From an uncultured virus (IMG/VR IMGVR_UViG_3300042356_001581) (taxonomy: Duplodnaviria > Heunggongvirae > Uroviricota > Caudoviricetes): DNA of 64,000 nt. Below are positions 35,360 through 62,015 of the stretch, piece after piece. The translations under genes and the position numbers were made by a program. The stretch's first letter is position 1. Each line of letters begins with the position of its first letter. The DNA lies in IMG/VR virus record IMGVR_UViG_3300042356_001581; one strand, written 5' to 3'. A model generated the notes under the pieces. That model was not told the DNA's origin. It made no database searches and saw only the letters and a list, made by a program, of their open reading frames with translations.

Positions 35360-36547
35360 TTATTGAACTATTACCGTTACATCGTCGCTTCCGCTATTTG
35401 CAGTATAAATATTCCCAAAAGAATCAATAGTTATTCCTGATGGTGCTATACCAGTAGTTCCAATAATTGTTGAAACCCCTAAAGGCGTGATTTTACTTAC
35501 ATCATCAGTACCAGTATTTGCAGTATAAATATTTCCAGAAGAATCAATTGTTATCCCATTAGGATTATTTCCAGTTGTTCCTAAAATCGTAGATACTCCA
35601 AGAGGTGTAATTTTACTGACATCTCCAATACCAGCATTTGCAGTATAAATATTTCCAGAACTATCTATTGTAATTCCAATAGGAAAATTTCCAGTTGTTC
35701 CTAAAATAGTGGATACTCCAAGAGGTGTAATTTTACTGACATTATCAGAACCAGCATTTGCAGTATAAATATTTCCCAAAGAATCAATTGTAATTCCTAT
35801 TGGCGTAGTTCCAGTTGTTCCTAAAATAGTAGATACTCCAAGAGGTGTAATTTTACTTACGTTATCGCTTCCAGAATTTGAAGTATAAATATTACCAGCC
35901 AAATCAATAGTTATGCCTTGTGGTTGTGAACCAGTAGTTCCTAAAATAGTGGATACCCCAAGAGGTGTAATTTTACTTACATTATCAGATTGATTATTTA
36001 CAGTATAGATATTTCCAGAACTATCAATTGTTATTCCGAAAGGGTCTGAACCAGTTGTTCCTAAAATAGTGGATACCCCAAGAGGTGTAATTTTACTTAC
36101 ATCACTTGATGATACATTTGCAGTATAAATATTTCCAGCCGAATCAATAGTTATACCTTGTGGTTGTGAACCAGTCGTTCCAAAAATAGAGCTTCCAGAA
36201 ATACCTATGTTTGAGTAAATATAAAAATCGGACGAAACATAAAGTGTAGTTCCATCTGATTGAAAAAGACCTTGATTAAGCGTGTTGAAAGCAATAGCTA
36301 ATGCTTGGATATTACCACCATTAACTTGCACAGTATATTTTATAGGAGTTGGGTTTGACGTATTAGAGATTACAATACTAGCAGTTAAGATTCCCGAATA
36401 ATTTTCCCCTGATAAATCATATTCGTAAATTACGCTTGGGGGAACGCCTAAAGGGTCTTGAGTACCACCTAATACGCTTACGCTTTGTGGTAAAGTAGTG
36501 TTATTTTGAACGTTAAGGGCAATAGTAGAACTAAAAGGTGCGCTCAT
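35360..36547 (-). CDS. beta-propeller (NHL/Vgb-like) repeat protein with a capsid-protein-like N-terminus
   Basis: Seven 40-aa repeats GTTG..P.GITID..GNIYT.N..S.DVSKITPLGVSTIL (120-bp period). Confidence 0.8.
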   Translation of the reverse strand: MSAPFSSTIALNVQNNTTLPQSVSVLGGTQDPLGVPPSVIYEYDLSGENYSGILTASIVISNTSNPTPIKYTVQVNGGNIQALAIAFNTLNQGLFQSDGTTLYVSSDFYIYSNIGISGSSIFGTTGSQPQGITIDSAGNIYTANVSSSDVSKITPLGVSTILGTTGSDPFGITIDSSGNIYTVNNQSDNVSKITPLGVSTILGTTGSQPQGITIDLAGNIYTSNSGSDNVSKITPLGVSTILGTTGTTPIGITIDSLGNIYTANAGSDNVSKITPLGVSTILGTTGNFPIGITIDSSGNIYTANAGIGDVSKITPLGVSTILGTTGNNPNGITIDSSGNIYTANTGTDDVSKITPLGVSTIIGTTGIAPSGITIDSFGNIYTANSGSDDVTVIVQ

Positions 36548-36548
36548 A

Positions 36549-37028
36549 TTATATTTTTTTATTTTTTATTAAATAATATACAAAAGCACCTATAAATAGT
36601 ATTCCTGTATATTTAACCACTTGTCTGCTGACGAAATAATCTCCTTTTGCAAAGTTAACAAAATGCTCACAGTTGTAATTAATGTGGTCATATTTTTGGT
36701 CTTTCAAATCTTTATAAAGTTGGTCAAGTGTTGCGGAATCCAAATTTGTTTCTTGAATTGAAACAATTTCCCTACCTCCTACAAGCCATTTACTTAAAGG
36801 TTCTTTAATTAAATTACCGCCACTTGAATTAACTTTATCTGGGTGTAAATGCACTATAAAAATTTCATCACCAATTCTCTCAATTATTCCATAATGAATG
36901 TAAAGAGGCATTAGTTTAGATTTTGTTGTTATAGTGTCTCCTGTTTTTAATTTAGAAACTATGTGGCTTCTATTTTCAATCTTTAATTTATAAAGACCTA
37001 ACGCATTAAATTTGTTCGACAAACCCAT
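36549..37028 (-). CDS. LRAT/NC-domain (permuted papain-like) acyltransferase or peptidase with C-terminal TM
   Basis: HYGI...YDHINYNCEHFVN; probable start 37028; TM followed by KNKK. Confidence 0.8.
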   Translation of the reverse strand: MGLSNKFNALGLYKLKIENRSHIVSKLKTGDTITTKSKLMPLYIHYGIIERIGDEIFIVHLHPDKVNSSGGNLIKEPLSKWLVGGREIVSIQETNLDSATLDQLYKDLKDQKYDHINYNCEHFVNFAKGDYFVSRQVVKYTGILFIGAFVYYLIKNKKI

Positions 37029-37473
37029 TGAAAAAATCTTCTTCGTTTTGTTTAAAAAAATAATCATCAAAGAACGTTGGCTCTTTTAAAGCATAGGCGT
37101 TTGATTGTTCCGTTGTATAAAAAATTATATTTTCATCTTCGTTTGGCAGTAAAGTAAAATTTATACTTGTACGTCCGTCAAGAACGAGGTTTTTATTGGT
37201 TGGTTTTATAAATATTGAGCTTTGCTTCTGATAAGGATTAACAGTTGTTACATCTACTGTAACACTTATAGTTCCATTAGAGTCGTAGCTTCTAAAAATC
37301 AAGGGTTGCAATAATTGTTGCGTTGTATTTGATTGTATGTAAATTTCGTCTATTCCATATTGGTAGCTACCCATAGATTCTTGTATTAAAGGATATGGAG
37401 TTCCTTTATTACTTGTTATTGTAAACACTCCATTTGGAAATGTAGTTGTTGCTGGTGCGTATAGTCCTGCCAT
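37006..37473 (-). CDS. paralog of the C-terminal part of the candidate major capsid protein
   Basis: YIQS.T..Q.LQ.L...D.NG...T..PYQ.Q..I...DG.T.I...LPN...FY shared with 61125..61820. Confidence 0.75.
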   Translation of the reverse strand: MAGLYAPATTTFPNGVFTITSNKGTPYPLIQESMGSYQYGIDEIYIQSNTTQQLLQPLIFRSYDSNGTISVTVDVTTVNPYQKQSSIFIKPTNKNLVLDGRTSINFTLLPNEDENIIFYTTEQSNAYALKEPTFFDDYFFKQNEEDFFNGFVEQI

Positions 37474-37475
37474 AA

Positions 37476-38518
37476 TTATTCTTCTTCAGCTATTACTTCT
37501 CCTTTTTTATCCATAGCCCTCAACTTCTTGGTATTTTTGGAAATCATAATCTTAATGCCGTTCTCTTGCAATATCATATTTTTCAACTTGTCCAATTCTC
37601 TTGCGGACTCTCCGTTGGTTATAGCCTCACGCATTGCCTTTAAGCCAACAACCGCTTCGTCTTTTAATTTCTTCTCGTCTTCAGCAACTACTTTTGGTGC
37701 TTGATACTTTTCCACTAAAACATCGTCTGTTTTATCAATACTACTACCATTCTTTTTTGGTTTAAATATCCAAAGAAGAACTAATGCAATTGCGATTGAA
37801 GCTATAAGTGTTTTTGATTCTTTATCCATTTTGTCTTTTTAATTTATAAAATATTAATGCGAGTGCAACAACGCCAACTCCTAATACAATTAAAGATGTT
37901 GTTCTTTTTTTCTTTGTTTCCTCTTGTAAATCTTGTATTTTTTTATCATTAAGGAACTCAATTATTACTTGGGTTTTAGCGACTTCGCTATAAGAAGTTG
38001 CTAAAAGTTTTTTTAATTTTTCTGCTTCTTGTTCGTTAAGTTCACTTAAACGCTGAAGCAGTTCTTGATTTCTTTTATTTTCTTTTTTTGCGTACAAATA
38101 CTGAACTCCTAAATCAATAGCAATTTTAGCTACTTCCGCATAACCAGCTCCACCTGCGTTTAAAAAATTACTATCCATTTGAATTTGATTTAGAAGCCAT
38201 CAAAGAAATAGCGTATATAACCCCTGTTCCTGCGCCAAGACTTGCGACATAAATCCAAGTATCACGAAGCCTTACTGTGCTTTCTTTTTGCAATGATTCT
38301 CGATATTTTAACAAACCGTCTGAAACAATACCCAAACGGTCTGTTTCTGCTTCCGTAGCTATTTGTGCTAAAGTAAGTTTTTCTGTTAATGCTTGTTCCA
38401 TTACTGCTTGATTCCACAATTGCTCTCGTTGTTTTTTAGCTTGTTTTTTAGCCGATTCCGCCCCTAACAAACTTGTTCCAAGTGATACCGCTATACCCGC
38501 TACTGCTATATAAGCCAT
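37476..38518 (-). CDS. three membrane-anchored coiled-coil proteins (37476-37829, 37822-38178, 38171-38518)
   Basis: Terminal hydrophobic helices with basic flanks; overlapping starts and stops. Confidence 0.7.
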
Positions 38519-38520
38519 AA

Positions 38521-39009
38521 TTATTTTTTTAATAGTTTGTAATTTTTATATTCTTCGTATGAAGACACAACAAACATCTCTTCTAATTTTTCTATTTCTT
38601 GTATGTTAGTTGGATTTGGGTGTACATTTACAAAAACAGTATCTTCTAAAGCAAGTGCAAACCTTTTACTTCCTGCATTAGCAGTTCCGTAAAATGGAGC
38701 TTCTATTTCTTTTACTCCTTCTTCGGTACATAACAACAATTTTCCTTTCATTAAAAAAAAAGTATGGTCAGATTTATGAATTTTTCCGATTGCAAACATT
38801 CCTTTTTTTATGAAAATTTCCCTAGTATATATGCCATCTGAAAACGAATGAGTTAAAGGCAACTCGTCTGAATTGCCTATAAATATATCTGGCGAATGAC
38901 TACTTATCAGCAAGTTTTCAATACGTTCAACTTGCTCTATGAAGTTTGAACCGTCTTTTTCAAAAAACATTTCTTGCCCTAGTGTATCTGCTAATTCTGT
39001 ATTTGCCAT
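38521..39009 (-). CDS. cupin-fold phage protein
   Basis: HSFSDGIYTREIFI..G...IGKIHK..H...NVH. Confidence 0.65.
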   Translation of the reverse strand: MANTELADTLGQEMFFEKDGSNFIEQVERIENLLISSHSPDIFIGNSDELPLTHSFSDGIYTREIFIKKGMFAIGKIHKSDHTFFLMKGKLLLCTEEGVKEIEAPFYGTANAGSKRFALALEDTVFVNVHPNPTNIQEIEKLEEMFVVSSYEEYKNYKLLKK

Positions 39010-39982: not shown

Positions 39983-40306
39983 TTAGTTTGTGTGTGAGTA
40001 TTTTTTTGTGTAAATTCCATAGTCTGAAAACGTGTACCAAGCTCTTTCGTGAAGAAAGTAAACAATTGGTTTAATACAAATTTCGGTTAGCCCTAAACTA
40101 CCTGCAACCCAAAAATTACCTGTGAAAAAATATGAAATCAAAAAAGTCTGAAAAGAGCCTAAAGTTCTGTAGCTAATTGCTTTTAAAATATGTCTTTTGT
40201 AACTTACTGATTTATGACTTTTGATTAGTTGTAATTCTAAATTGTCATTTTTTAATTGTTTATATTCCTCATTTGAAATTATTTTGAATTTTGTTAAATC
40301 AATCAT
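39983..40306 (-). CDS. DUF2061-like membrane protein
   Basis: RHILKAISYRTLGS...YFLHERAW. Confidence 0.75.
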   Translation of the reverse strand: MIDLTKFKIISNEEYKQLKNDNLELQLIKSHKSVSYKRHILKAISYRTLGSFQTFLISYFFTGNFWVAGSLGLTEICIKPIVYFLHERAWYTFSDYGIYTKKYSHTN

Positions 40307-40340
40307 TTTTTTTTTGAGTTTAATTTGTTATAACGGTATA

Positions 40341-41102
40341 TTAGTTAATAGTAGCTATGTTATTTTTGAATTTTACTTCTTTCGCATCACAAACGATGTG
40401 GTGTTCAATGTCTATATCTTCAAAATTTCCTGTCAAAGTTCTTGTCGAACAGTTAATGACAATTTCACTTGTATAAAACTTATTTCCATTTATAATTATA
40501 AGCCATTTTTTAGAAATGTTTATAGCTAAATTATTGTAGTAAATTCTAACAAAAGAAGTTTCATTTTCTTTTTTTAGTACCACCTCTCTACCCTCAATTA
40601 TGTGTTTTTGAATGGAATCTGTTTTACTAAATTCTTTTTTTTCTGATGGCATTTTAATAAATTTTTGAATGTTATTAAGTAACTGGTTCATAGAAGACGT
40701 TTCATCTACGTTAGTAGTGTCTAAATTGATAAATTTTACAGTAGGTGGCTCATAGTTTTCAACGTGAAAATGTTCCCTACCTCTAATTTCTGTAGTGTGT
40801 ACATAAATTTCAACTACATCTGAATTTGCCTTTAGTTCATCTCTCATATCTTTGTAAGGAGAGACTAACGCTACAATTACATTGTAATTTAAAGAATCTA
40901 AATATTTTGCGATTGCTATTGCTTGGGCTATGTTATTTCTACGTCCTTGCTCCGTATAATCTTTATTATTATTTATTTTTCTCAAATCATCTCCATCAAC
41001 TAAAAATGTCTTTTTAATTGAGTTTTCTGATAAAAATTTGTATAAATGTTTCGCTAATGTTGTCTTTCCTGCGTGGGGTTGACCTGTAAACCAAAAAATC
41101 AT
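40341..41102 (-). CDS. cysC: adenylyl-sulfate (APS) kinase with C-terminal extension
   Basis: IFWFTGQPHAGKTTLA, VDGDDLR, YTEQGRRNNI, VALVSPY, YEPP. Confidence 0.85.
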   Translation of the reverse strand: MIFWFTGQPHAGKTTLAKHLYKFLSENSIKKTFLVDGDDLRKINNNKDYTEQGRRNNIAQAIAIAKYLDSLNYNVIVALVSPYKDMRDELKANSDVVEIYVHTTEIRGREHFHVENYEPPTVKFINLDTTNVDETSSMNQLLNNIQKFIKMPSEKKEFSKTDSIQKHIIEGREVVLKKENETSFVRIYYNNLAINISKKWLIIINGNKFYTSEIVINCSTRTLTGNFEDIDIEHHIVCDAKEVKFKNNIATIN

Positions 41103-41111
41103 AATAAAATA

Positions 41112-41930
41112 TTAAACGTAACCAAAATAGTCGTAAAACCATTTGTAGGTGTTTTTAATACTATTGCATAATACATAACCTAACACGTCATAATAGTCAT
41201 CAGGCTTCATTTCAAACTTCTCTCTTAACGTGTGGTCGCCATATATTCCGTGAACAAGGTCGTTTTCGTGCGTTAATTGAGTAATATTTTCAAAATCGTG
41301 TGATTCATAGTAAGGCAAGTCAAAATACTCGTATAAACGCTTCATTTCGATTTCTGGATTCGCCATTAAATCTTCGTAACGAATAAATAACATTTTTTTT
41401 GCTATTCCTTGCTGAATACAATCTTTTAATCTGTCCATTGAAACTCCAACTGGAACTCCATCTGCCCAAATATTTATCCTTTTGTCTAATGTAGTGCCGA
41501 CTAATTGAGGTGCATTTTGAATATGACTTTCTCTATGTGGGTTTTTACGAAAGTTTTTTTCCATTGAGGAATAAACAGAACGTACATCTCTAACCATACA
41601 AACGATTTTTGGATTTTCGTTTAGCATATTCAATAAATTATAGTGAATACCCCAATCTCTGCTCTTATCGACTATAAATTGTTTAGGCGTAAGGTTATTG
41701 AAAAAACCTTGCATACCAGCTCTACAATACCCTAAAAATGCTTTTTCCATAGCTTCTTTATCTTGCGACAATATAGCTTGGGAATGAGCATAAGTGTTTT
41801 TTGAGCTTAATACTAAATCGCCTAGTCCAGAGGTAGGCGTACAATAAAATTCTGGGTTTTGAGCAATTAAATTCTGAAGCAATGTACTACCGCTTCGTGG
41901 TAAAGAAGAATTAAAAAAAATCTTTTTCAT
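41112..41930 (-). CDS. PAPS-dependent sulfotransferase
   Basis: SSLPRSGSTLLQNL (5'-PSB loop), MVRDVRSVYSS (3'-PB), IRYEDL. Confidence 0.9.
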   Translation of the reverse strand: MKKIFFNSSLPRSGSTLLQNLIAQNPEFYCTPTSGLGDLVLSSKNTYAHSQAILSQDKEAMEKAFLGYCRAGMQGFFNNLTPKQFIVDKSRDWGIHYNLLNMLNENPKIVCMVRDVRSVYSSMEKNFRKNPHRESHIQNAPQLVGTTLDKRINIWADGVPVGVSMDRLKDCIQQGIAKKMLFIRYEDLMANPEIEMKRLYEYFDLPYYESHDFENITQLTHENDLVHGIYGDHTLREKFEMKPDDYYDVLGYVLCNSIKNTYKWFYDYFGYV

Positions 41931-42428: not shown

Positions 42429-43856
42429 TTATACAATTGTTAATACACCACTATTACTCCATACAGAACCACTTGGCAAACCAGCACTTGATGTTGGAAT
42501 GTCTTTAATTGAAAGATTATTTACAAATGTTGCACAAGCTCTATCAGCAGTAATATTACTTCCTACAATTATTGCATCAGCACAAGTATTTGTGTTGTTA
42601 TAAAACCCTCCTAAAATAGAAGAAGTATCTCCAGAAGCAATGTTATAACCTCCTCCTAAAATAGAAGAACATTGTCCAGAAGCGATGTTGTTTTTACCTC
42701 CGACAACTGTTGAACTATAATTAGAAGCAACGTTATACGCACCTCCACCAATTGTTGACCAAGTATTAGTAGCACTATTTGTAGAACCCCCTCCAATTGT
42801 TGAACAATAACCCGAAGCATTGTTATTAAAACCCCCTCCAATTGTTGAGTTACTTCCAGAAGCATTGTTATTACAACCCCCTCCAACTGTTGAACCACTC
42901 CCACAAGAAACATTACTATAACCCCCACCAATTGTTGAAGAATCACGACAAGCAATGTTATTTCTACCCCCGCCAATTGTGCTAAAACCATTAGCATAAG
43001 CTGTTACAATATTATTACAACCTCCGCCAATGACATTGCCACCAGTTGCATTATAAGTACTATAAGTATTGGTATTGATAACATTATCACAACCACCATT
43101 AATAACATCTCCGATAAATGGAAAAACTCCCGATTGTTGAGATGGATTTATTGTGTTGGTATTGCCACCTCCAATAGTTGAAGAACTTCCAGAAGCATTG
43201 TTACAAACACCACCGCCAATTGTTGACGAACATCCAGTAGCATTATTAAAATAACCACCACTAATTGTTGCCTTTTCTCCAGAAGCAGTATTTGAAGAAC
43301 CTCCGCCAACTGTTGAACAACCCCCTAAAGCAAAATTGGCATTACCTCCGCCAATCGTTGAAGCAAAATTAGCAGAATTATTGTTAACACCCCCACCAAT
43401 TGTTGAATAATAATTATTAGCATTGTTGTCTCGACCACCGCCAACTGTTGAACAAGGGTAACAAGCAATATTGCCACTACCCCCACCAATTGTTGAGTAA
43501 ACCCCCGAAGCATTATTACTGCCCAAACAAGGTTCAATGCCACTTGCATTAGTATCATACCTAAAAGGGCTACTTCCGCCACCCCCACCGCTAGTATCAA
43601 AACCAAGATTAGTTTCGGCAAAAGCAATAAAACCATTAACTGTAAAAGGTGTTGAAGTACCATCTTCGCAATTTGCCAAAGGTTGATTAAATACAACGGT
43701 TGAGTTTCCTAAATACTTATTGTATATAACGATAAATGGTATTGCATCATACAAGGCTAAAACATCAATTGCACACGAATTTTTCGGCACAACTAATATA
43801 ATAGACCCATTGTATGACACTTGTAAACTTCCGTTTACTATTTCTAATTTTATCAT
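42429..43856 (-). CDS. fibre/spike protein with 14-aa YadA-head-like repeats
   Basis: STIGGG..N.AS repeats; N-domain shared with 45333 and 43877; C-domain shared with 44150. Confidence 0.8.
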   Translation of the reverse strand: MIKLEIVNGSLQVSYNGSIILVVPKNSCAIDVLALYDAIPFIVIYNKYLGNSTVVFNQPLANCEDGTSTPFTVNGFIAFAETNLGFDTSGGGGGSSPFRYDTNASGIEPCLGSNNASGVYSTIGGGSGNIACYPCSTVGGGRDNNANNYYSTIGGGVNNNSANFASTIGGGNANFALGGCSTVGGGSSNTASGEKATISGGYFNNATGCSSTIGGGVCNNASGSSSTIGGGNTNTINPSQQSGVFPFIGDVINGGCDNVINTNTYSTYNATGGNVIGGGCNNIVTAYANGFSTIGGGRNNIACRDSSTIGGGYSNVSCGSGSTVGGGCNNNASGSNSTIGGGFNNNASGYCSTIGGGSTNSATNTWSTIGGGAYNVASNYSSTVVGGKNNIASGQCSSILGGGYNIASGDTSSILGGFYNNTNTCADAIIVGSNITADRACATFVNNLSIKDIPTSSAGLPSGSVWSNSGVLTIV

Positions 43857-43876
43857 AATCTTTTTTTTATTTTATT

Positions 43877-44137
43877 CTAAAAACCTAAATTGGCTTCGGC
43901 AAAAGCGATAAACGTGCTTGGCGTAAAAACCGTATCAGTTAAATCAACGCAACTTGATAAAGGTTTGTTAAAAACTGATGTAAAGTTAGCTAAATATTTA
44001 TTAAAAATTGAAGCAGTGGGCGTTGCGTTTGACAAAGCTAATGTATCAATAGCACACGCATCTTTTGGTATTACCAAAATAACTACGCCATCTTTTGATA
44101 TTTGCAAACTACCGAAAACTATTTCTAATTTATTCAT
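43877..44137 (-). CDS. stand-alone copy of the fibre N-terminal domain
   Basis: KLEIV.GSLQ.S..G..ILV.PK..CAID.LAL...FIAFAE.NLGF. Confidence 0.8.
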   Translation of the reverse strand: MNKLEIVFGSLQISKDGVVILVIPKDACAIDTLALSNATPTASIFNKYLANFTSVFNKPLSSCVDLTDTVFTPSTFIAFAEANLGF

Positions 44138-44149
44138 AATATTTTATTT

Positions 44150-45298: not shown

Positions 45299-45332
45299 TT
45301 TATTTTATTTTTTAATTTTTAATTTTTAATTT

Positions 45333-51220: not shown

Positions 51221-51224
51221 AATT

Positions 51225-51389: not shown

Positions 51390-51395
51390 AATTGA

Positions 51396-52498: not shown

Positions 52499-52499
52499 A

Positions 52500-52820
52500 T
52501 TATTTTTTTATAAATTGGTTATACTTATTTATAGACGTTTCTGTAACTCCCATCACTCTTTTAAGCCTTGCTTCTGTTTTATCACCAAAATTACTATCAG
52601 GAACTAACGTTTTTAATGCGGTTTGGAGTATTTTTACCTCCTCACCCACAGAACCTTTTTTCAAAACCTTATCATAATCGGGTTTTACAATATTAGATTG
52701 AACTGAATTATCTTGTTCATTAGCTATTTGTGCGTTTTGATTCCTTTGCTTATAAAAATAGTATAGACCTATTAATATTAGACCTGCTGAAACAATTTTT
52801 ACTTTGGTTTCGATTTTCAT
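52500..52820 (-). CDS. membrane-anchored peptidoglycan-binding-domain protein
   Basis: TM; LKKGSVGEEVKILQTAL...DSNFGDKTEARL. Confidence 0.75.
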   Translation of the reverse strand: MKIETKVKIVSAGLILIGLYYFYKQRNQNAQIANEQDNSVQSNIVKPDYDKVLKKGSVGEEVKILQTALKTLVPDSNFGDKTEARLKRVMGVTETSINKYNQFIKK

Positions 52821-52861
52821 AATTAAATTATTTGTTATGTTTCTTATTAATAAATTGGTTG

Positions 52862-53023
52862 TTAAACTTCCATTGGTGGGTTTAAATGACTTCCCTCTTC
52901 TTCTTGTGCAACATCTTCATTTCTTATGTTGAAATTCACATTTCCGATTTTAATTTTACTATAAAGCAAATATACTCCAACGCCAATTAAAACCGCACCT
53001 ACTATATAATAACCTTTACCCAT
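52862..53023 (-). CDS. small membrane protein (53 aa, not in the ORF track)
   Basis: MGKGYYIVGAVLIGVGVYLLYSKIK... Confidence 0.7.
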   Translation of the reverse strand: MGKGYYIVGAVLIGVGVYLLYSKIKIGNVNFNIRNEDVAQEEEGSHLNPPMEV

Positions 53024-53024
53024 T

Positions 53025-53357
53025 TTATAAGTCTTTTAATGCTATTTCTGTTACTCCTTTTGCTTTTTTCAAAGCAACTTCTGTTAATATTCCGAAATCT
53101 CCGTCAATACCATCTTTATTAACGCCTGTGTCGCCTAAATTAGCAGAATAATCTTTTAACAAAGCTCTTTGCAATTCCGAAACTTCTGCGCCTTTAGAGC
53201 CTTTTGAAAGCACTAAATCCTTGTTCAATTCTGGAGTGGCTTGTATTTTATCTTCAGGCTTTGGTAAAGTGCGAAGCCATTTACTAATTATGTAAATTAC
53301 TATAACTAACGTTCCGCCAATTATTAAATACTTTTTTTGTTTTGCGTCTAAAGTCAT
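53025..53357 (-). CDS. membrane-anchored peptidoglycan-binding-domain protein
   Basis: TM; LSKGSKGAEVSELQRAL...GIDGDFGILTEVALK. Confidence 0.85.
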   Translation of the reverse strand: MTLDAKQKKYLIIGGTLVIVIYIISKWLRTLPKPEDKIQATPELNKDLVLSKGSKGAEVSELQRALLKDYSANLGDTGVNKDGIDGDFGILTEVALKKAKGVTEIALKDL

Positions 53358-53416
53358 AATTTAATTTTATCTAATTACCATTTTATTTTTTTCTACGCAT
53401 CATTAGATTCACACTA

Positions 53417-53749
53417 TCAAGAAGATTGTGCGCTATATGTTTTTATGTATTCATCTTTTTGTATAAAAGTAGGCGTACCTGATGAACCGCTAGGAGAAAT
53501 ATTTTGCTTAAAAAAAGTTGTACCAGCGTTTGTATATTTCATAGGATTATTTGTAGTCAAACCCTCTAAATTTTTTGAAGCAATAAAAAATGTAGGAATA
53601 TCACTTAAATTCAATTCCTTTTTAACTAAAGGCGTTTCTGGAGCTACAACACTACTTTCAGCTACTACACTTTTATTTTTAATTTTTTTCCAAATTAAGT
53701 ACCCAGCTACTACAACTCCAGCACCTATTAATAAATTTTTGTTTTTCAT
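53417..53749 (-). CDS. membrane-anchored protein
   Basis: MKNKNLLIGAGVVVAGYLIWKK. Confidence 0.7.
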   Translation of the reverse strand: MKNKNLLIGAGVVVAGYLIWKKIKNKSVVAESSVVAPETPLVKKELNLSDIPTFFIASKNLEGLTTNNPMKYTNAGTTFFKQNISPSGSSGTPTFIQKDEYIKTYSAQSS

Positions 53750-53839
53750 AGTTTTTTTTTTAAATTATTATATTTTTTTTATCTTAAACTGCTATTAACT
53801 CTAATTAATTTTTGATAAAATAGAGACTTAAAATTAATT

Positions 53840-54562
53840 TTACTTATTTAATTCTTTATAAGCTACATATCCAACTAAAAGTACAACAGCACCAATCCAA
53901 ACATATTTAGTGTTATCAACAGGAATTGGAGCAATTGGAGCGTCTCTTGTAACAATTATAGGTTCTTTCATTCCGCCTCCAGATGTTCCATTTGCATTAA
54001 GCAAATCATCTGAATCATCATAAGGAAGATTATTTAACGCACTATATAATTTTTTTGTTTCTTCAGCAGACATTGTGAAGCCTTTTTTATAGTGCTTCAA
54101 AACTCTTTTTAATGTACTTAAAGGGTTTGTAATAATATTAATTACTAATTTTCTATCTTGTAAATCTTTAAGCGAATTATTGCTATAATACAATTCACTA
54201 CCGTCCGTTGCAAACATTGATACTGTAAAATCAAAACGATTGATAGTTGCATTTGGATTTGATGCAAATATTTTTACTAAATCAAATGTATTTCCTTTGT
54301 AAGTAACTTTCATTCCATTTTCACTCTCCCAAATCATTTTACCCCCGTTAGAAATAAAATAATTTTTAGCTTTTGTATATTCACTAAGATTAGGAAAGAA
54401 AATATCACAATCAGATTTAAGTGGCTTTTCAGAAAAATAATCTCTCAAAACTCCACCTGCAATCCAAGATTTAATTCCATTTCTTCTTAACTCTCCAAGA
54501 ATTAAATTATTGAAGTAAACAAGCGTTAAAGCCTTATTCACATTAATAGGTTTAGTTGCCAT
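53840..54562 (-). CDS. CCA/poly(A)-polymerase-type nucleotidyltransferase head domain with C-terminal TM
   Basis: IAGGVLRDY, DCDIF, RFDFTVSMFA; tail YVWIGAVVLLVGYVAYK. Confidence 0.8.
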   Translation of the reverse strand: MATKPINVNKALTLVYFNNLILGELRRNGIKSWIAGGVLRDYFSEKPLKSDCDIFFPNLSEYTKAKNYFISNGGKMIWESENGMKVTYKGNTFDLVKIFASNPNATINRFDFTVSMFATDGSELYYSNNSLKDLQDRKLVINIITNPLSTLKRVLKHYKKGFTMSAEETKKLYSALNNLPYDDSDDLLNANGTSGGGMKEPIIVTRDAPIAPIPVDNTKYVWIGAVVLLVGYVAYKELNK

Positions 54563-54574
54563 AATTTCTATTTT

Positions 54575-55942
54575 TTAATTAGATGATTTGCTATTACCAA
54601 AGATAATATACCCTGCTAAAAAAGCACCTGCTATCATCAACAAATTTTTGTTGTTATTTTTTGCAGGAACAACTGTACCGCTATTTTGCGGAATAATTTG
54701 ATATTCATTTACACTTAAAGAAGCATCTTTACCATCGAAAAAATTATTACCTACAATGTATCCATTATAGATTTGTCCCTTTATTGCAGAGACTCTACAA
54801 GGGTCATATTGCATATTTTGAATTAATGCACCATCAGTATTACATTTCCCCCTTTTTTTATCAACCAAAGCAATTACAGATACAGGTGTGCGACCATTAT
54901 TACTTGTAGTATTTTGAATCTCTCTAGTCAAATATTCAATAGGAATATTAATTAAGCCTGTTCCTTTTCCTTTAATTTCAAGAAAATCGTTATAAGAAGG
55001 AATTTCAGTTAATCCTTTTTTAACTTTAAACTCATAATTATAAGTATTCTTTCTAATCAATCGACCTGTTACTTTTGTTCCTGAATTTATTATTAATTCA
55101 GGTGGTTGCATACATTTTGCATTTGGAGGGCAATAGCTATTTTCTCTATATTTATAATCCTTATTTAAAACAAAAGTTGCGTTTTTTTCAAGCACGACCT
55201 CGTTATCTAATTCTGGAATAATTTTTTCTGGAATAATTTTTGGGTTTATAGATATAACGTTAGGGTCTGTAGGTATCTGGAAGAATGTTTGTGACTTTGG
55301 ATTTGCACCAAAATTAATACCAGTACTAACTGTTACAGGCGTATTATCATCAACTTTTGACAAATATTCTTTTGGAATTTTAAATTCTTTTTGATTTATC
55401 ATATTTCCCGCCAAAGAAGTCCAAAAACTAACTTTAGGCGCAGTAGTATTAGGTAATATATAATTTGGATTTTCAACAACCGCTATGTTTCCTTCAAACC
55501 GAATTACATTTACTACATTGCCTTTTGAAAAAGTACCTACTTGTGGGTTTGGATTTACTGTATATGAAACATAGGGCATTATAGCTCCTGTGTTTATATT
55601 TTCACGAGGTGCTATTGCGACATTTTGCATTGCCGAAGCAATTGCTTGTTCTCGCTTTGCCATTTCAACAGCTTGTATATAACTTTCTGATGGAAGGAAA
55701 TTGTAAAAAACTGGTGGAGTATTTTCTGGTATTAATGTACTTTTTCTATGCAAAAGCAAATCATTGTACACCATATTGTCGAAAATAGGATTGTAAACTC
55801 TATAATCATAAATTAATTCATATTTACCTAATTTCTCCACTACATCTAAAATGAAAGGCGGAATTATTGATACACCCATAGTTGGTCTTATCATTGAAGA
55901 ATATTTTTGATTTTGTAAAATCAAGTTGCTTTCGTTTTCCAT
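54575..55942 (-). CDS. 455-aa protein with C-terminal TM
   Basis: Beta-rich, with Cys pairs; LLMIAGAFLAGYIIFG tail. Confidence 0.75.
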   Translation of the reverse strand: MENESNLILQNQKYSSMIRPTMGVSIIPPFILDVVEKLGKYELIYDYRVYNPIFDNMVYNDLLLHRKSTLIPENTPPVFYNFLPSESYIQAVEMAKREQAIASAMQNVAIAPRENINTGAIMPYVSYTVNPNPQVGTFSKGNVVNVIRFEGNIAVVENPNYILPNTTAPKVSFWTSLAGNMINQKEFKIPKEYLSKVDDNTPVTVSTGINFGANPKSQTFFQIPTDPNVISINPKIIPEKIIPELDNEVVLEKNATFVLNKDYKYRENSYCPPNAKCMQPPELIINSGTKVTGRLIRKNTYNYEFKVKKGLTEIPSYNDFLEIKGKGTGLINIPIEYLTREIQNTTSNNGRTPVSVIALVDKKRGKCNTDGALIQNMQYDPCRVSAIKGQIYNGYIVGNNFFDGKDASLSVNEYQIIPQNSGTVVPAKNNNKNLLMIAGAFLAGYIIFGNSKSSN

Positions 55943-55953
55943 TATTCTAATTT

Positions 55954-56739
55954 TTATCTGAATACAATATTATCTTTTTCAAAGTTATCAATAAAGTTTT
56001 TAATCTTATCGTAACGTATTTTATTCTCTTGACTTGGGTAATGTTCAAAAACTTCTAAAAACGCTTCAAAAGCCTCAATTCTTGGATAGCCAAGCCCTAA
56101 ATATATAAGTAATCCGTTTATGTCCGCTTCATTTTCATCTCTCATATCTTCGTTGACATAAAAATGACTAAACTCGTGACAAAGAATAGCGAAACGCATA
56201 GGTATTGTATAATTGTCAAATTGCCTTTTGGAAACTTGAATACGACCTGTCATTCTTGAAATTCTAGCAGGGGTTGTAAGTTCTTTTCCTCTTGCATCTA
56301 CAATTGTTGGTAAATACTCAATCATAAAACCTCCGTTATCTGACTGATAAGATTTGTTAGCTTCTAAATAAGGTGCATTAAAACAAAATCTTTGAGCAAA
56401 ATCTACAAAATAAGCAATGGTTGGGTTGTGAATATCAACCACGTCAATTCTTTTTTGTAGTGGCGTCTTATCAACGGAAACAACTTTAACATTAGTGTCT
56501 TGACTTTGAGGACTATTGCCCTTTTTATCGTCGTAAACAGAAATTACAACGCTTTTAGATGTAATTGGCATACGGACGAAAAAAGTATAGTCAGAATTAA
56601 CTGTTTTATATCTGTCAGTAAAAACGATTTTAGGTCTTTGCTCGTCATAAATTTTAATTCTAACTTTAGTAGGCATTGTTACCGCAACTTTAACTACCAA
56701 GCACATCTCTTCAAATCTTGTATCTAGCCTTAAATTCAT
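55954..56739 (-). CDS. zincin-like metalloprotease
   Basis: AILCHEFSHF...ENEAD. Confidence 0.7.
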   Translation of the reverse strand: MNLRLDTRFEEMCLVVKVAVTMPTKVRIKIYDEQRPKIVFTDRYKTVNSDYTFFVRMPITSKSVVISVYDDKKGNSPQSQDTNVKVVSVDKTPLQKRIDVVDIHNPTIAYFVDFAQRFCFNAPYLEANKSYQSDNGGFMIEYLPTIVDARGKELTTPARISRMTGRIQVSKRQFDNYTIPMRFAILCHEFSHFYVNEDMRDENEADINGLLIYLGLGYPRIEAFEAFLEVFEHYPSQENKIRYDKIKNFIDNFEKDNIVFR

Positions 56740-56740
56740 A

Positions 56741-59719
56741 CTAATTATTTTTTTTATAAATTTTATAACCTATTGCTCCAGCAACAATTAGTACTGAAAG
56801 AAAAATAAATGTCTTATTTAGACCTATAAACGTATTGTCTGGCTTTTTTTTTCCTTTGGGTGCTTCGATTCCTAAATCAATTTTTGCTTGAGTAATACTA
56901 TCTTTTATCCAAGTATCATAATTTGGTGTTCCTTGCATATTTGAAAAATTTTCAAACTTTTTATTCATCAAAAAATTACTCTTGTCTTTTTCACGTTGAA
57001 TCCAATCAGCAAAGCTTAATGTAGTTCCGCTTTCTCTCCACAAACGATTTGCGCTTTTTACTTGTGTTTCCATAATTTTTATTTTTTTGTTGTTATTGTT
57101 GTTGGAGAAGTTGCACCCGCTAATATTTGAGCATCAACTTCAAGTCTTGGTTTTAAATACCCTTTGTAGAGATAAACTAATAGTCCTACTGAAGCACCTA
57201 ACATTACTATACCTATGATTTTTTTAGTTTCCATAAGGGTGTTTTATTTTATGATTCAAGGAATTCGCCTTGTCTCTTTAATTGATTTTGTTTTTTACTT
57301 GAAATAAAAGGTTCAATAACTTGACTTACTGAATTTTTTATATTCTCAAATGGCAAGTTTTTTCTCCCTAATTCAATACCTAATACACTCGGATTAATAG
57401 GAACATCATCTATAAACACACCCGAAGTTTGACTTAATGGTGTAGTTGTGTTTTTCCTATTTTTTTTAGCACGTAAACTATGTTCTTTCCAAGCATAATA
57501 TGCAAATATACCGCCTACTACTAATAATCCGTAAAAAACTGTATTGTTTTTCATAATATTTTTTTTTAAAACAAGTATGTTGTATGCAACCTATATTACC
57601 CCTTTTACCACTTGAAAACAAAGGCTGAACACTGAAACCATATTTATTTATTTATTTATTTATTTATGCGGTTTGGCTTTTTTTCCAAGCACGACCTACA
57701 ACATAAACTAATCCGAATATAACTACTGCTGATACTCCGATATAAACCAAATTACTTGTTGTACTTGGTTTTTTATTGTCTTCATAAAAATTGCCCATTT
57801 TTTCTAAATTTTAATTGTTAATGTTTTTTTAAAGGACATTTGAGGATGGTTTTATTTCCACCCCCAAGTCCTTTACCTTTCTAAATCTGTATAGATAAAT
57901 ATTGTAAGAAATCTTTAATGTGAATTATTTCTTCACAATTCCAGATTCATCTATGTACCCTCCATCTGGTATTGAATCCAAAGTTTCTTTAGATACTACT
58001 TCGTATGGATAGTCTTTTGGATTAAGACCAAATTTAATTAAAGCATTTGTACCGTAAATTGCATATTTTTTCCCATCAATTACTTGCCAAACACTACCAT
58101 TTATGTCAGAAGCCCCTAAACTTATTGGGTAATTATTTTTTGGAATAACCCCATTTTCGAGAATTTCACTATCACTAGCAACTACTTCATTCTTTTTTTT
58201 CATTGCATAATAAGCTACGCCTAGAGCAACTAACACCCCAACTCCGATTAAAATTTTTTTGTCTTTTAAAATTTCCATTTTTTTTGTTTATATTAAATTA
58301 AAATTAAGCATAATTAGCAATACAGCGACCACCGCCACAACTTCCTTTTCTTGCTCCGTAATAATAACCACCGCTTTCACATTGCGCACAACCACCTCGT
58401 CTCCCTTGAGCATTAAAGAATCCTTCTGAATTCTTTTTAGGTTTTGGTTTTAAATAAGCAAATAACGCTATTGCACCTACGATTGCCAAACCTCCGATAA
58501 TAATTTTTTTGTTTTCCATTTTTTTTGATTTTAATTATTTTTAACTATTTTTTTTTGATTCTGCTTGTAATACTGGACTTTTCTTGCAAACTAATATTAC
58601 AATTAAAACTACTACTCCTAAAAAAATTAATCCATTTCTATTGTCTTTTGTCATTTTGCTTTATTTTATTTATAAAAATGATTTTTTTACTCTTGTGATT
58701 TTTTCCATCCTTTTCCAATAACCCACGCATATCCGTAAACTACTGCGAATGATAATGCAAGTCCTAAAACTGCTCCTACTAAATTTGGTGTTTTCATTTT
58801 TTTATTTTTTAAAATTTAATATTTATTCACAAACTCCAAATCCACTAGGACACGGTGCTTTAAAACAAGCTATTTCTACCTCTCTATATTTTTTACCCAA
58901 TTTAGCACATTCTTGTGGTGTAATACCACCAAAAAAACTTGTATTTGATTTGGTATTATAACTATTGGAATTACCTTGTGGTTGAGCATTTACCAATGCT
59001 AATGCTTCCGCTAATACTTGCGCATTTGCATCTGATTTTGCTTTGTCTTTTGTTCTTTTAACATCCGTAAAGTAAAGCCAACCTAAAAAAACCGCACCTC
59101 CAATTAGTAATAAATTTGATGTTTTCATCTTACTTTATTTTTTATGTACAATTATACTCGTAGCAACCCCACCTATTACAGCACCTATAAGACCTGCAAC
59201 ATAAATGTTTTTATTCTTCCAATAACCAATCATAAGACCTAAAACAAGTCCTGTAACCGCACCGTTTACCGATGCTTGAGTAGTAACCATAAGAATTTCT
59301 CTTTTGTCTTTACTCGCTATGTCTTTTGCTTGTGCTAAAAAATTTTGCATAATAAATATTTTTTAATTTTATTTCCTTGTAAATGCAAAAACTACAGCCC
59401 CAATCAAAACTACTCCACCAACACCTAATCCAATATAAAGAGCAGTATTACTCTTTGGTTTTTCTGTTGTGTTTGCTCGTCCTTGATTTTGTAATTCAAC
59501 TGCACGTTGATTTGCTAACGCAGTTTGATATTGTAATTCAGCCAATGCTTTTGCATCATTAGCTTGTCCTTTCGCTTGTTGCACATTCTGATTATTAACA
59601 ATCAATCCTGTTCCGACACCTACTAAAGCAGGTAAAACGCCTTTTACTATTCCTCCCCAATCCCAAGCCATATTTTTATTTTTTAAAGAGTTAGTGTAGT
59701 TACGATTTGCTCTAACCAA
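56741..59719 (-). CDS. run of small membrane proteins (56741-57073, 57079-57234, 57249-57554, 57664-57798, 57925-58278, 58304-58519, 58541-58654, 58687-58797, 58823-59128, 59135-59350, 59369-59671)
   Basis: Each has 1-2 TM helices with basic flanks; the four under 60 aa were translated by hand; 57664 and 58687 both end ...G..WKKSQ. Confidence 0.7.
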
Positions 59720-61029
59720 GAACCGTATTCTTGAGTAAAAGTTGGATTTTGATTTAAACCAATAAATACACCATCTACCAATTGGTCAAGGGTGTATTCT
59801 GGTGCAGGTGCAAGTACTTGGTTATTTACAAGAAATTCGGCAACTTCTTGTGGATATGTACCAACAGAACTACCAATAATTTTTGATAACATTTGTTCAT
59901 CTATAATCATAACTCTATTTTTTTATTTTTTAGGTCTTGCGACAAAGTATATTACAGTACCTAATACTGCAACTCCAAGTAAACTCAATAAGACAATTGA
60001 AGTTGTACTCATTCCTTTATCTTCGTCTTTTGTGTCTTCTTTTTTACCTGTAATTGGGTCAACTGAAACACCTGATTGCGCTATTATACTTTGAGACTTT
60101 GCAATTTCAGTATTTGCTTTATTTGTACTAACTGTGCCAAACAACTTAATACCATCACTTAAATATTGTGGTATGTTTGCTTTAATTTCTTGCCAAAAAG
60201 AAGGTTTAGCAGGGGCTTGAGTACTTGTTGTGGTAGAACCCGAAAAAGGAGATTTAGGTATTTCATAATCCAAAAATCCTTTAGTCGTAGATGATGTGAA
60301 ATTCATATACCCATCACCAGTCATTTTTAAATATTGAGCAGTTTGCTCAAAGCCACTCGCAATTACATTTGTAACTGCTGGGTTTGTTATGAAATCGTTC
60401 AAATCTTGGAAATAAGATTTTGATACTTTCAACAAGTTAGACATTAATTTAACAACTTGTTCGTCTGAAGCACTATTATCAACAACAATTCCGTTTTTAA
60501 CTAATAAAGCAATCATTTGGCTTTTATATGATTTTACAAGTAATACCAATGTTAATGCTCCTGTTTGAGCAGTAGGTTTTGAATTTGCCATTTTTATTTA
60601 TTTTTTTAAGATTAATGCAGTCGCTATAAACAATGCTGACACTACTAAAATAACATTTGTTTGGTTTGCCAATAAATGCGTATTTCCAGAAGCGTCATTT
60701 GGTGTAGTTGCTGGAGGTACTGGCGCAACTTTTCCGCTACCCGTTACATTAAGATAATTTAAGTGTTCATCGTTGTTGCTATTTTTGTTTTTACAACTAT
60801 CGCAATTGCAACTTCCACTTTTATCATCTTCTTTTTTAGAGAACATCTCTAAAATAATGTCTTTGTCGGGGTGGTTTTCCATAACCTTTTGCAAAGCAGG
60901 TTCACCAACCTTATCTACTAATTGGCTTAATCCCATATCAGAAGTGTTAATGACATCATAATTGAATGAATTCATTATTTTTTCTGCTACTCTTGGATTA
61001 GAATCCGCAACATATTCATATACGTTCAT
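59683..61029 (-). CDS. three putative virion proteins (59683-59910, 59923-60591, 60598-61029)
   Basis: Directly downstream of the capsid candidate; two have C-terminal TMs; 59683 resembles the helical N-domain of 59923. Confidence 0.7.
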
Positions 61030-61046
61030 AGTTTTTGATTTTAAAT

Positions 61047-61086
61047 AAAAAAGAGCAAGTAGAAATAAATCAAACTTGCTCTTTTT
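61047..61086 (-). terminator. terminator after the candidate major capsid gene
   Basis: AAAAAAGAGCAAGT...ACTTGCTCTTTTT inverted repeat. Confidence 0.8.
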
Positions 61087-61124
61087 CTAAATTATACATT
61101 AATTCGTTATACCATTTCTGATAA

Positions 61125-61820
61125 TTACGCTCTTAACTTAATGGTTTGTCCATTAGTTACTGGAGGTGTTCCGAATTGTCTGCTTACTGGTTGACCACCC
61201 AATGCTCTTGCAAGGTTGATGTTATCAGCAGGGTAGAAGTATAGTGATACTGTAGCGTTAGGTAACACTTGAGCAATAATGATTTTTGTGAAACCATCAA
61301 TACGGTAAGCATACTTCATTGCAACGATATTCGTTTGTTGCTGATAAGGGTCAATTGTAGGCACTAAGGTTTTTTGCGCCAAGTTACCATTCGCATCTCT
61401 CGTGTTTACTGACAAAGTTTGTAGAACTTGGTTAGCAGTAGCCGATTGAATATAAGTTAAACCAACTGAATAAGGATTATTCATAAATTGGTATAACATC
61501 TCTTGGTAAGTGATGTCAGGAATACCTGAACTAATTGTGATTGAACCAACAGTCAATGAACCGTTAGTGAAACCTGTACTGTTAATGAATTGGTAAGAAC
61601 CAAGTACATTAAAGTTTGCAACTGCTGACCCTGATGTAGAAGTCACGTTGATTATGTAGGGTTGAGATGTTTGAATATCTTGTTGACCCATTCCTCCGTC
61701 TGCTCTGAAGAAATCATCACCTGTGAAACTTAAATCTTGGTCGATGAATCCGTCAGCATTTGAGAAAGATTCCATTGCACTTTGACGTGCGTTTGATAAA
61801 TATCTTCTTACGTTTGACAT
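61125..61820 (-). CDS. candidate major capsid protein (beta-rich, jelly-roll-like)
   Basis: 231 aa, no TM, alternating beta-strand pattern after an acidic leader, own terminator, heads the membrane-protein block, has an in-genome paralog; the fold is inferred. Confidence 0.5.
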   Translation of the reverse strand: MSNVRRYLSNARQSAMESFSNADGFIDQDLSFTGDDFFRADGGMGQQDIQTSQPYIINVTSTSGSAVANFNVLGSYQFINSTGFTNGSLTVGSITISSGIPDITYQEMLYQFMNNPYSVGLTYIQSATANQVLQTLSVNTRDANGNLAQKTLVPTIDPYQQQTNIVAMKYAYRIDGFTKIIIAQVLPNATVSLYFYPADNINLARALGGQPVSRQFGTPPVTNGQTIKLRA

Positions 61821-61883
61821 TTTGTTTTTGTTTTAATTTATTTTACACTAATTTTTTTTAACTCGGTATATATGGACACCTAA

Positions 61884-62015
61884 TTACGCTTTTGAAGCAG
61901 TAGCAGGAGATTCAATTTTTTTTGCCAACAATGTTGTTTGAACATAATTTGCAATCAAAACACCTACAACAACAACGGCAACACTTTTCAATAAAGGAAC
62001 AATTTCGTTTTTCAT
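61884..62015 (-). CDS. small membrane protein (43 aa, not in the ORF track) upstream of the capsid candidate
   Basis: MKNEIVPLLKSVAVVVVGVLIANYVQTTLLAKKIESPATASKA. Confidence 0.7.
   Translation of the reverse strand: MKNEIVPLLKSVAVVVVGVLIANYVQTTLLAKKIESPATASKA

Follow-up and report, generated by a model that had tools for sequence, protein, structure and literature searches.

Layout of the window and its late arm

We analyzed a 64,000-nt stretch of DNA from an uncultured virus (IMG/VR record IMGVR_UViG_3300042356_001581), hereafter called the window, with a focus on a block of late genes that an earlier reading of the sequence (the original prediction) had assigned to the structural arm of a probable large, tailless, membrane-containing Bacteroidota virus. 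The window is divided into two arms, with plus-strand genes up to position 35190 and minus-strand genes from 35360 to the window end. Every open reading frame (ORF) chosen across 35360-64000 lies on the minus strand, and both GC skew and AT skew flip sign at the arm junction at ~35-36 kb (GC content, 26-36%), which confirms the predicted co-orientation of the late genes. The plus arm holds early-type genes (RecT, two N6/N4 methylase genes, a 5′-nucleotidase, a NUMOD4 endonuclease, and an Rv2179c-like exonuclease), and none of its 76 scanned ORFs matched a structural family in Pfam.

The late block extends past position 62015, where the original prediction had ended it, to the window end and over a further 45-65 kb in relatives. 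Three relatives were read fully or nearly so, namely G004 (73 kb), collinear with window positions 47375-64000; G003 (100,322 bp), collinear with 16-63.5 kb; and G006:C9, a 132,486-bp contig collinear with 1497-63753 at 70-88% nucleotide identity, whose arms occupy 0-34 kb on the plus strand and 34-132 kb on the minus strand.

Read from the window end, the arm (all minus strand) begins with the last 75 codons of a packaging-type P-loop ATPase of 271 amino acids (aa), whose gene is cut by the window end (63771-63998). A 175-aa NlpC/P60/LRAT-like hydrolase (62938-63465) and two overlapping genes for proteins of 127 and 145 aa, single-pass membrane proteins by hydropathy (62216-62948), come next. 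Behind these lie a 43-aa single-pass membrane protein (61887-62015; 62-90% identity by tblastn in four of four relatives) and, directly after it, a 231-aa predicted single jelly-roll protein (61125-61820), the candidate major capsid protein. This pair had been thought to head the block. Both ORFs are real, but they head a transcription unit rather than the arm because a terminator-like site (62188-62212) lies just upstream; five more co-oriented genes are found upstream of 62015 up to the window end. Below the 231-aa gene follows a core cluster of 35 ORFs (47044-61029), most of which encode small proteins with one terminal transmembrane (TM) helix as an N- or C-terminal anchor; the majority are conserved and syntenic in relatives.

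Predicted membrane proteins are as dense as in the PRD1 late operons

TM helices were called by a crude hydropathy test (Kyte-Doolittle 19-mer mean of at least 1.6, or an uncharged 17-mer mean of at least 1.5) on ORFs of at least 30 aa. We found that 35 of the 56 late ORFs up to the window end (62%) were TM-positive, as were 32 of 52 within 35360-62015, compared with 9 of 83 (11%) in the early arm; the original observation of about 35 TM genes is confirmed. The same code gave 16/26 (62%) for the late operons of PRD1, 2/20 (10%) for lambda Nu1-J, and 10/25 for ORFs 33-57 of phage SSIP-1; by this measure, the density in the late block equals that of PRD1. Positive ORFs are frequent in the interval 47000-62015, where they make up 27 of 36 (43-aa and 231-aa genes included). 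One of the 35 calls, in a fiber protein (42429-43856), is probably false, and a terminal hydrophobic stretch was seen by eye only in five more ORFs (at 36549, 49312, 52500, 53417, and 53840).

Seven TM genes had been reported as too small for the ORF track, and all exist as ORFs of 36-54 aa (51228-51389, 52865-53023, 57082-57234, 57667-57798, 58544-58654, 58690-58797, and 61887-62015). For six of them, tblastn found a counterpart at the syntenic position in three or more of the four relatives; ORF 58544-58654 has no match in the four. Two N-anchored proteins of the cluster (52500-52820 and 53025-53357) bear partial endolysin-type domains.

A conserved jelly-roll protein and its paralog

The structural model of the 231-aa protein (pLDDT 88.8, from 76 diverse sequences) comprises a helix (residues 2-17), a floppy linker of low confidence (18-50), and a beta-sandwich (51-215). 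The predicted fold is a jelly roll and nothing more specific. The terminator attributed to its gene was also found, as an intrinsic-terminator-like hairpin with a U-run at 61044-61087 (dG -18.7 kcal/mol, z -5.4; 0 of 200 shuffles as good). Searches of the PDB with the family (sequence and profile) returned nothing significant, and hhalign of its profile against the PRD1 penton protein P31 returned nothing; the model also matches the heads of collagen-type tail fibers of tailed phages.

We consider the 231-aa protein a candidate shell protein, and hence major capsid protein, on an indirect case made up of its conservation, its huge family, its own terminator, its gene position, and its N-terminal arm. 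Specifically, the gene is the most conserved of the late genes (84-93% identity in four relatives versus a typical 40-80%) and sits behind the 43-aa TM gene, five genes (~2 kb) downstream of the ATPase. In a collection clustered at 90%, the protein has 1471 homologs, which form 596 clusters at 50% identity; the best 120 of the 1471 share 81-98% identity with it, and none of these is informatively named. In IMG/VR it was found at 40 loci, the longest of whose contigs measures 102 kb.

A 155-aa ORF at 37006-37473, 24 kb from the 231-aa gene, is a true paralog of the family (hhalign probability 96.8%, E 2.6e-10, 107 columns) and a candidate second capsid or vertex protein. It has syntenic homologs in G006, G001, and G003; G004 ends short of this region, and its only match is its own 231-aa ortholog. 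G001 (102 kb) encodes the jelly-roll domain six times; two of the copies are fused in a single frame of 397-406 aa (G001:C1 17225-18415, L050) that, judged from its sequence, is a double jelly roll made by duplication. Representatives of the 50% clusters include tandem-double forms as well (P0128, P0156).

The packaging ATPase resembles the FtsK/HerA/B204 type

ORF 63771-63998 is the C terminus of a 271-aa protein, the full version of which was read from G004 (P0122). It has 828 homologs, a Walker A motif (GRKGCGKT), a Walker B motif (LLLIEDIN), and weak hints of DUF87 and Zot. The original prediction had proposed to look for a packaging ATPase of the FtsK/HerA/A32 type as opposed to a terminase. 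The predicted structure supports an FtsK/HerA/B204-type enzyme upstream of the jelly-roll gene: among its fold neighbors, B204 ranks above VirB4, with VirB4, TrwB, and HerA all close, and the 50 best structural matches include no terminase. Because sequence profiles link the ATPase neither to P9 beyond Walker A nor to any PDB chain, its placement in the B204/A32 branch draws on fold, size, and gene context. Searches of PDB chains with the family (sequence and profile) gave nothing significant, and hhalign against lambda terminase A gave nothing.

Profile searches find no hallmark tailed-phage families in the window and its relatives

The late ORFs of at least 60 aa (n = 49) were compared with Pfam (E<=0.01) and PHROGs (E<=1e-3). 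In Pfam, 0/49 matched terminase, portal, capsid, or tail families, and in PHROGs, 0/49 matched terminase, portal, major head, tail tube, sheath, or tape measure, as the original reader had noted from motifs. Across all 125 ORFs of the window, Pfam likewise found no large terminase subunit (TerL), portal, HK97 capsid, tail tube, sheath, or tape measure.

An extension of the contig had also been suggested, with TerL, portal, HK97 capsid, and tail genes elsewhere named as the finding that would speak against a tailless virus. The collinear 132,486-bp relative provides this extension, and in its remaining 64 kb Pfam and PHROGs detect no TerL, portal, HK97 capsid, or tail family, which answers that point. 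No tailed-phage structural or packaging families were found at 68-132 kb of G006 (79 of 85 ORFs searched in PHROGs, 82 ORFs in Pfam), in G003 (150 of 151 ORFs in Pfam, 62 ORFs in PHROGs), in 47 ORFs of G004, or in 120 ORFs of G001 and G003 (PHROGs). If the contig ends are genome ends, the 132-kb contig is whole and the absence of tailed-phage genes is complete at the level of hidden Markov models (HMMs).

The genes found beyond the window end in relatives include the ATPase, a PAP2 phosphatase, a GDSL lipase, an SLT transglycosylase, a MoxR-type AAA+ protein, a zeta-toxin-like kinase, a glycan-synthesis cassette, a glucosaminidase, and, in G004, an M15 peptidase. Replication genes of the relatives encode a DnaD-like initiator, a DUF3127 single-stranded DNA-binding protein, a DnaQ-like exonuclease, and also RecT. 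Giant late proteins of 1,178-2,781 aa are present as well (L041 12899-18589, L042 4390-16998, L071 2348-17999, and L076 57-3590); they bear DUF2958, DUF5661, and ART-PolyVal domains and are encoded close to the zeta-toxin-like kinase and the MoxR-type AAA+ ATPase. We take them for probable polyvalent proteins, which may be packed and delivered with the DNA.

A proposed tailless, membrane-lined particle and its alternatives

We consider it probable, if well short of certain, that the block makes up the middle of the morphogenesis arm in an uncultured freshwater double-stranded DNA bacterial virus whose tailless icosahedral shell encloses an internal lipid membrane. The large-genome, lipid-containing phage lineage envisaged originally is supported by the contig extension, the fold of the ATPase, the jelly roll, and the TM density. 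What was observed is gene content, and each step of the following scheme is drawn by analogy with PRD1-type assembly. The ~35 small single-pass proteins would enter the host inner membrane and mark a patch that becomes the internal vesicle. The 231-aa jelly-roll protein would coat this vesicle, with its N-terminal helix and floppy linker facing the membrane, while the 155-aa paralog would serve as a second shell or vertex protein, and a protein with an HExxH motif (see below) may trim shared linker motifs. The 271-aa B204/HerA-type ATPase would then pump the genome through a membrane-lined vertex. Gly-rich fibers and an NHL propeller would attach the particle to its host, and the NlpC/P60 enzyme (in relatives, also SLT and M15) would open the cell wall at entry or exit.

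Several points weigh against this interpretation. Lipid in the virion, the lack of a tail, and the shell role of the 231-aa protein are indirect proposals drawn from genes and models, and the genome size is without precedent for a tailless, membrane-lined particle. Structures were predicted for two proteins only (the 231-aa protein and the ATPase), and the capsid- or portal-size ORFs of relatives (376, 529, 324/448, and 362 aa) were examined by HMMs, PDB sequence search, and Atlas only; sequence and profile searches of the PDB gave nothing significant for the 376- and 529-aa proteins of one relative, and Atlas gave no usable match for the former. Solved capsid proteins of sphaerolipoviruses are absent from the 50 best structural matches of the jelly roll in both fold searches, which does not in itself point to a different fold. 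Between the ATPase profile and PRD1 P9, hhalign aligned only Walker A (probability 7%), and the Atlas clusters of the ATPase are mostly labeled Uroviricota, which we assume to be automatic labeling.

Some PHROG labels also point toward tails or heads. In relatives, a protein of 206-214 aa is matched by phrog_196, labeled 'baseplate hub' (E as low as 2.4e-30), only in the last third of the profile (positions ~376-526 of 536), and the same protein also matches a 'peptidase' PHROG. The 'short tail fibre / adhesin' profiles phrog_12032/24280 match the 162-aa ORF at 38521-39009, and 'baseplate hub and tail lysozyme' (phrog_1259, positions 983-1144 of 1179) matches the 175-aa hydrolase. PHROGs labeled 'terminase small subunit' and 'minor head protein' weakly match the kinase domain of the zeta-kinase-like protein, and 'terminase large subunit' phrog_2666 (E ~1e-5), the sole PHROG TerL match, falls on the ATPase itself. 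As judged from profile positions, the 'tail' labels all fall on enzymatic or end domains of long profiles.

One alternative is a very divergent tailed phage whose terminase, portal, HK97 capsid, and tail genes escape the profiles, with membrane proteins that act on the host envelope (exclusion, lysis timing, or remodeling) and a jelly roll that is a decoration or fiber head. In its favor, tail-type labels fall on some proteins, the genome size is normal for tailed phages, fiber-like Gly-rich proteins are present, the jelly roll resembles collagen-type fiber heads, several large ORFs are without a predicted structure, and the Atlas labels read Uroviricota. However, we regard this explanation as unlikely: the 132-kb and 100-kb relatives hold no terminase-type ATPase-nuclease in Pfam or PHROGs, the only morphogenesis ATPase is B204/HerA-like with no terminase among its best structural matches, the 'tail' labels are confined as described, the TM density is six times that of the lambda head-tail genes, and the jelly-roll gene shows the highest conservation in the late arm, which is unusual for a decoration or fiber tip. 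A second alternative, likewise improbable in our estimate, is a virion that contains lipid but is built differently, with an outer envelope, as a pleomorphic vesicle, or to a plan so far undescribed; it would use a B204-type ATPase, and its jelly roll would not form an icosahedral shell. The TM density and the ATPase apply to it equally, the jelly roll is only generically capsid-like, and no tailless icosahedral phage is known above ~44 kb (SSIP-1, 43,788 bp). Against it, the 231-aa protein suits a shell role in its extreme conservation, its size, and its N-terminal arm, and B204/A32-type packaging ATPases are known from icosahedral viruses that fill preformed shells; known pleomorphic viruses have small genomes and no packaging ATPase.

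The remaining alternative is a non-viral element, either large and plasmid-like or conjugative and vesicle-borne, in which the ATPase, the membrane proteins, and the lytic transglycosylase form a transfer apparatus and the giant polyvalent proteins are transferred effectors. VirB4, TrwB, and HerA are indeed close fold neighbors of the ATPase, and the relatives carry SLT, DUF932, DUF2958, ART-PolyVal, a zeta-toxin-like kinase, and RecT, all of them frequent on conjugative elements. Yet Pfam scans of 100-132 kb contained no relaxase, VirB4-size ATPase, coupling protein, or Tra families, and B204 outranks VirB4 among the structural matches. The lineage also has endolysin-type genes (M15, glucosaminidase), homing endonucleases, tRNA genes, and a jelly roll of capsid-like type, and the family occurs on 40 IMG/VR viral contigs. 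We rejected this reading, which we hold to be very improbable, because these Pfam scans revealed no relaxase, coupling protein, or VirB4-size ATPase.

Comparison with known tailless viruses

For the ATPase, the closest system is B204 of STIV/STIV2 (Turriviridae), a solved member of the A32/P9-like branch of FtsK-HerA ATPases. Sequence identity to it is only 16-18%, and the ATPase of the window lineage has an extra helical C-terminal part (~217-271). In contrast to STIV, the presumed host is bacterial and not archaeal, and the ~17-kb genome of STIV is exceeded six- to eightfold. PRD1 (Tectiviridae; 14,927 bp) shares with the window lineage a small packaging ATPase, tiny TM genes on either side of the gene for the (candidate) capsid protein, late wall-degrading enzymes, and the density of small late membrane proteins, as well as possible inverted terminal repeats in the 132-kb relative. 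Its annotated order (ATPase, tiny TM genes, capsid gene, tiny TM gene) also resembles that of the window lineage. However, the genome of the latter is seven to nine times larger, and the Tectiviridae hallmarks (P3 double jelly roll, protein-primed family B polymerase, and terminal protein) were found neither in the window nor in relatives by Pfam and PHROGs.

In Sphaerolipoviridae and their kin, the two capsid genes adjoin the ATPase gene and directly follow it. This order was not found here, as the 231-aa gene lies five genes downstream of the ATPase and the paralogs are 24 kb apart. The window lineage is similar to Sphaerolipoviridae, Simuloviridae, and Thermus phage P23-77 (PMC6356626) in having two paralogous single jelly rolls, an A32-type ATPase, and many membrane proteins. 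Published abstracts give genomes of 16-30 kb for these groups (~30 kb for sphaerolipoviruses and 16-19 kb for simuloviruses). PMC6356626 describes SSIP-1 as a tailless phage in culture that contains a membrane and two types of capsid protein. SSIP-1 (circular according to its record) is unusually large for its type and the largest cultured one that we checked, but its genome is one third the size, and we found no sequence relation to it with profiles of the jelly roll, the ATPase, and the HExxH protein or by blastp and tblastn; no SSIP-1 protein matches the 132-kb relative. SSIP-1 has a structural protein of 2,319 aa, to be compared with the giant proteins of the relatives.

With respect to higher taxa, an FtsK-HerA (A32/P9/B204-type) packaging ATPase, as in Varidnaviria, is present by predicted fold, the 231-aa protein and its paralog are candidates for the vertical jelly-roll capsid proteins of that realm (one double or two single), and the internal membrane of most of its members has a proxy in the share of late ORFs with a predicted TM helix, which is that of the PRD1 late operons. 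TerL, the mark of Caudoviricetes, was not found: Pfam returned no terminase in the window (125 ORFs), G003 (150), G004 (47), or G006 at 68-132 kb (82). Portal, HK97 capsid, tail tube, sheath, and tape measure likewise gave no Pfam or PHROG match in these scans, though very divergent forms of portal or capsid are conceivable among the unassigned ORFs of 324-529 aa. The late block, the jelly-roll protein, and the ATPase had no nucleotide or protein match among 50,697 deposited phage genomes, and a full-text literature search returned known small groups only, with no description of this lineage. Together with the abundance of homologs, the absence of a deposited match indicates a common freshwater phage group still without a name. 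We rate as about as likely as not the broader proposal, taken as a whole, of a widespread, undescribed, high-rank lineage of bacterial viruses with a large internal-membrane capsid built from a small single jelly roll, a B204-type motor, and a genome of ~100-135 kb, possibly linear with inverted 11-bp-repeat ends, together with giant polyvalent proteins.

If true, the tailless membrane particle type can scale in prokaryotes, and the virus offers a test case for a small jelly-roll protein that tiles a very large shell. It would be the first large prokaryotic member, or a sister, of the PRD1-adenovirus lineage and would close the gap in size that separates small tailless phages from the realm's large eukaryotic viruses. 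A 2026 essay on virus gigantism (PMC13598248) treats the large genomes of the realm as those of eukaryotic viruses, with Tectiviridae as the bacterial starting point. The family is plentiful in public metagenome data, and a search with tailed-phage marker genes would overlook the window lineage or misclassify it.

A candidate protease and a shared linker motif

The second most conserved late gene (69-92% identity in four relatives) encodes a 261-aa protein at 55954-56739 with 928 homologs. Its HExxH residues H188, E189, and H192 are invariant in 34 aligned sequences, with conserved acidic residues 10-18 positions on. Pfam, PHROG, and PDB searches gave no support beyond one weak, probably spurious PDB match to a primase subunit; the protein is a candidate zinc protease by its motif alone. 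The protein may be a maturation protease.

The motif [FY]xN[AVIM]xG occurs six times in late proteins, where shuffling yields 1.2 on average (six were reached in 1 of 1000 shuffles), and once in the early arm. The late sites lie in the jelly-roll linker (61125-61820, residue 19) and in ORFs 37822-38178, 56741-57073, 58304-58519, 60598-61029, and 42429-43856, thus also in small membrane proteins; the match in the Gly/Asn-rich fiber may be due to chance. Together, the HExxH protein and the shared motif hint at a common processing or sorting signal.

Candidate attachment and lysis genes and other genes of the late arm

The 175-aa hydrolase (62938-63465) matches phrog_1259 by the lysozyme end of the hub protein (E 8.2e-27) and the endolysin phrog_9589, and it has Pfam LRAT and NLPC_P60 matches below the cut-off. 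It is 87-88% identical in two of three close relatives, is without a match in G004, and by its sequence is a candidate particle-associated wall-degrading enzyme. A second LRAT/NlpC-like protein, of 173 aa (36549-37070), scores 26.1 bits for Pfam LRAT against a cut-off of 24.3 and has a hydrophobic C terminus by eye.

Three paralogous fiber- or spike-like proteins of 475, 382, and 566 aa (42429-47033; pairwise identity, 54-65%) each contain 14-15 Gly-rich 15-residue repeats, and the 382-aa protein matches Pfam UspA1_rep. The N-terminal 110 residues are common to the 475- and 566-aa proteins and the C-terminal end to the 475- and 382-aa proteins, while the 566-aa protein has a different 190-aa end domain, so that the trio looks like a cassette of swapped receptor-binding tips. 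The last gene of the arm (35360-36547) encodes a 395-aa seven-bladed NHL/SBBP beta-propeller (Pfam SBBP E 1.9e-25, NHL E 8e-19) with seven GITID motifs spaced 40 residues apart, a candidate receptor-binding protein.

Between the fibers and the propeller lies a sulfation cassette (39983-41930) of a DUF2061 membrane protein, an APS-kinase-like P-loop protein with an extra C-terminal part of 150 aa, and a sulfotransferase (Pfam E 1.3e-19, 2.1e-17, and 6.4e-19, respectively). The cassette is conserved in three relatives, and its products may sulfate a glycan, either on the particle or on the surface of the host. The 162-aa ORF with adhesin-type PHROG matches is followed by three small coiled-coil proteins with terminal TM helices by hydropathy (37476-38518), the 115-aa one of which has a weak T7_gp14 match below the cut-off. 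Within the core cluster, a 455-aa variable protein (54575-55942; 35-42% identity in relatives) has a C-terminal membrane anchor (TM 433-449), and its neighbor is a 240-aa nucleotidyltransferase-like protein (53840-54562; phrog_4400 E 2.4e-19, phrog_1614 E 1.6e-11) with a C terminus hydrophobic by eye. A 187-aa LEA_2-domain protein (49312-49875; 29.3 bits against a cut-off of 25.4) has a hydrophobic N terminus.

Host, genome ends, and genome size

Shine-Dalgarno-like tetramers precede none of the 56 late starts and one of the 83 early starts (1/139 in total), below the 5% background of random window 15-mers; the same count gave 13/20 for lambda and 8/30 for PRD1. Start regions in the window are A-rich. 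The near-absence of Shine-Dalgarno-like motifs fits Bacteroidota, and the CarboxypepD_reg-like and DUF3127 domains fit such a host without proving it. In a species-genome collection, two of six matches were in metagenome-assembled genomes (MAGs) of Bacteroidota (Sediminibacterium and 'uncultured Bacteroidetes'), and G006:C9 was binned into the Sediminibacterium MAG. The other four were in bins of Bathyarchaeia (two), Planktophila, and Chlamydiales, which makes binning noisy evidence of the host. The host is thus probably a member of Bacteroidota, on indirect support. The Bacteroidota promoter motif TAnnTTTG showed no enrichment, either on the coding strand or ahead of genes, and is left out of the host evidence.

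Positions 37-300 of the window hold 15 copies of an 11-bp unit, (C/A)GTGGAACT, followed by a G-rich tract. G006:C9 has arrays of the 11-bp GGGAATTTCGT at both ends, in inverted orientation and with 98% identity over 56-58 nt (L067 1-89; L073 last 300 bases). G002 ends in a like array beside a C-rich tract (L081 last 150 bases), and G003 starts in a G-rich tract. As like arrays sit at the ends of the window, G006, and G002, independent assemblies break at one feature. The arrays may be inverted terminal repeats of a linear genome, as in the PRD1 type, but they fit equally an inverted-iteron origin that breaks the assembly of circular genomes. Direct terminal repeats were absent from G001, G003, G004, and G006, a head-tail inverted repeat from G002, G003, and G005, and exact copies of the terminal arrays of the window or G006 from IMG/VR. 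The 132-kb contig may represent a whole genome, and we estimate the genome of the window virus at ~100-135 kb, about three times that of the largest such phage grown so far.

Some further observations concern the repeat and the early arm. Three tRNA genes (Pro-TGG, Gln-TTG, and Leu-TAG; plus strand) adjoin the terminal array of the 132-kb relative (G006:C9 132,035-132,276; L073 12035-12276), and the window has none. The core of the terminal repeat unit, AGTGGAACT, recurs four times with a 15-bp period at 20716-20769, inside a 608-aa early ORF (20566-22392), and may form a second binding array for the same protein or encode a peptide repeat. The match of the 72-aa ORF at 14809-15027 to the N6_N4 methylase profile is confined to the final 44 positions of that profile, so the ORF is a gene fragment. 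In the 513-aa methylase (27309-28850), residues 20-468 span the 221-position profile, so that the protein carries a large insertion.

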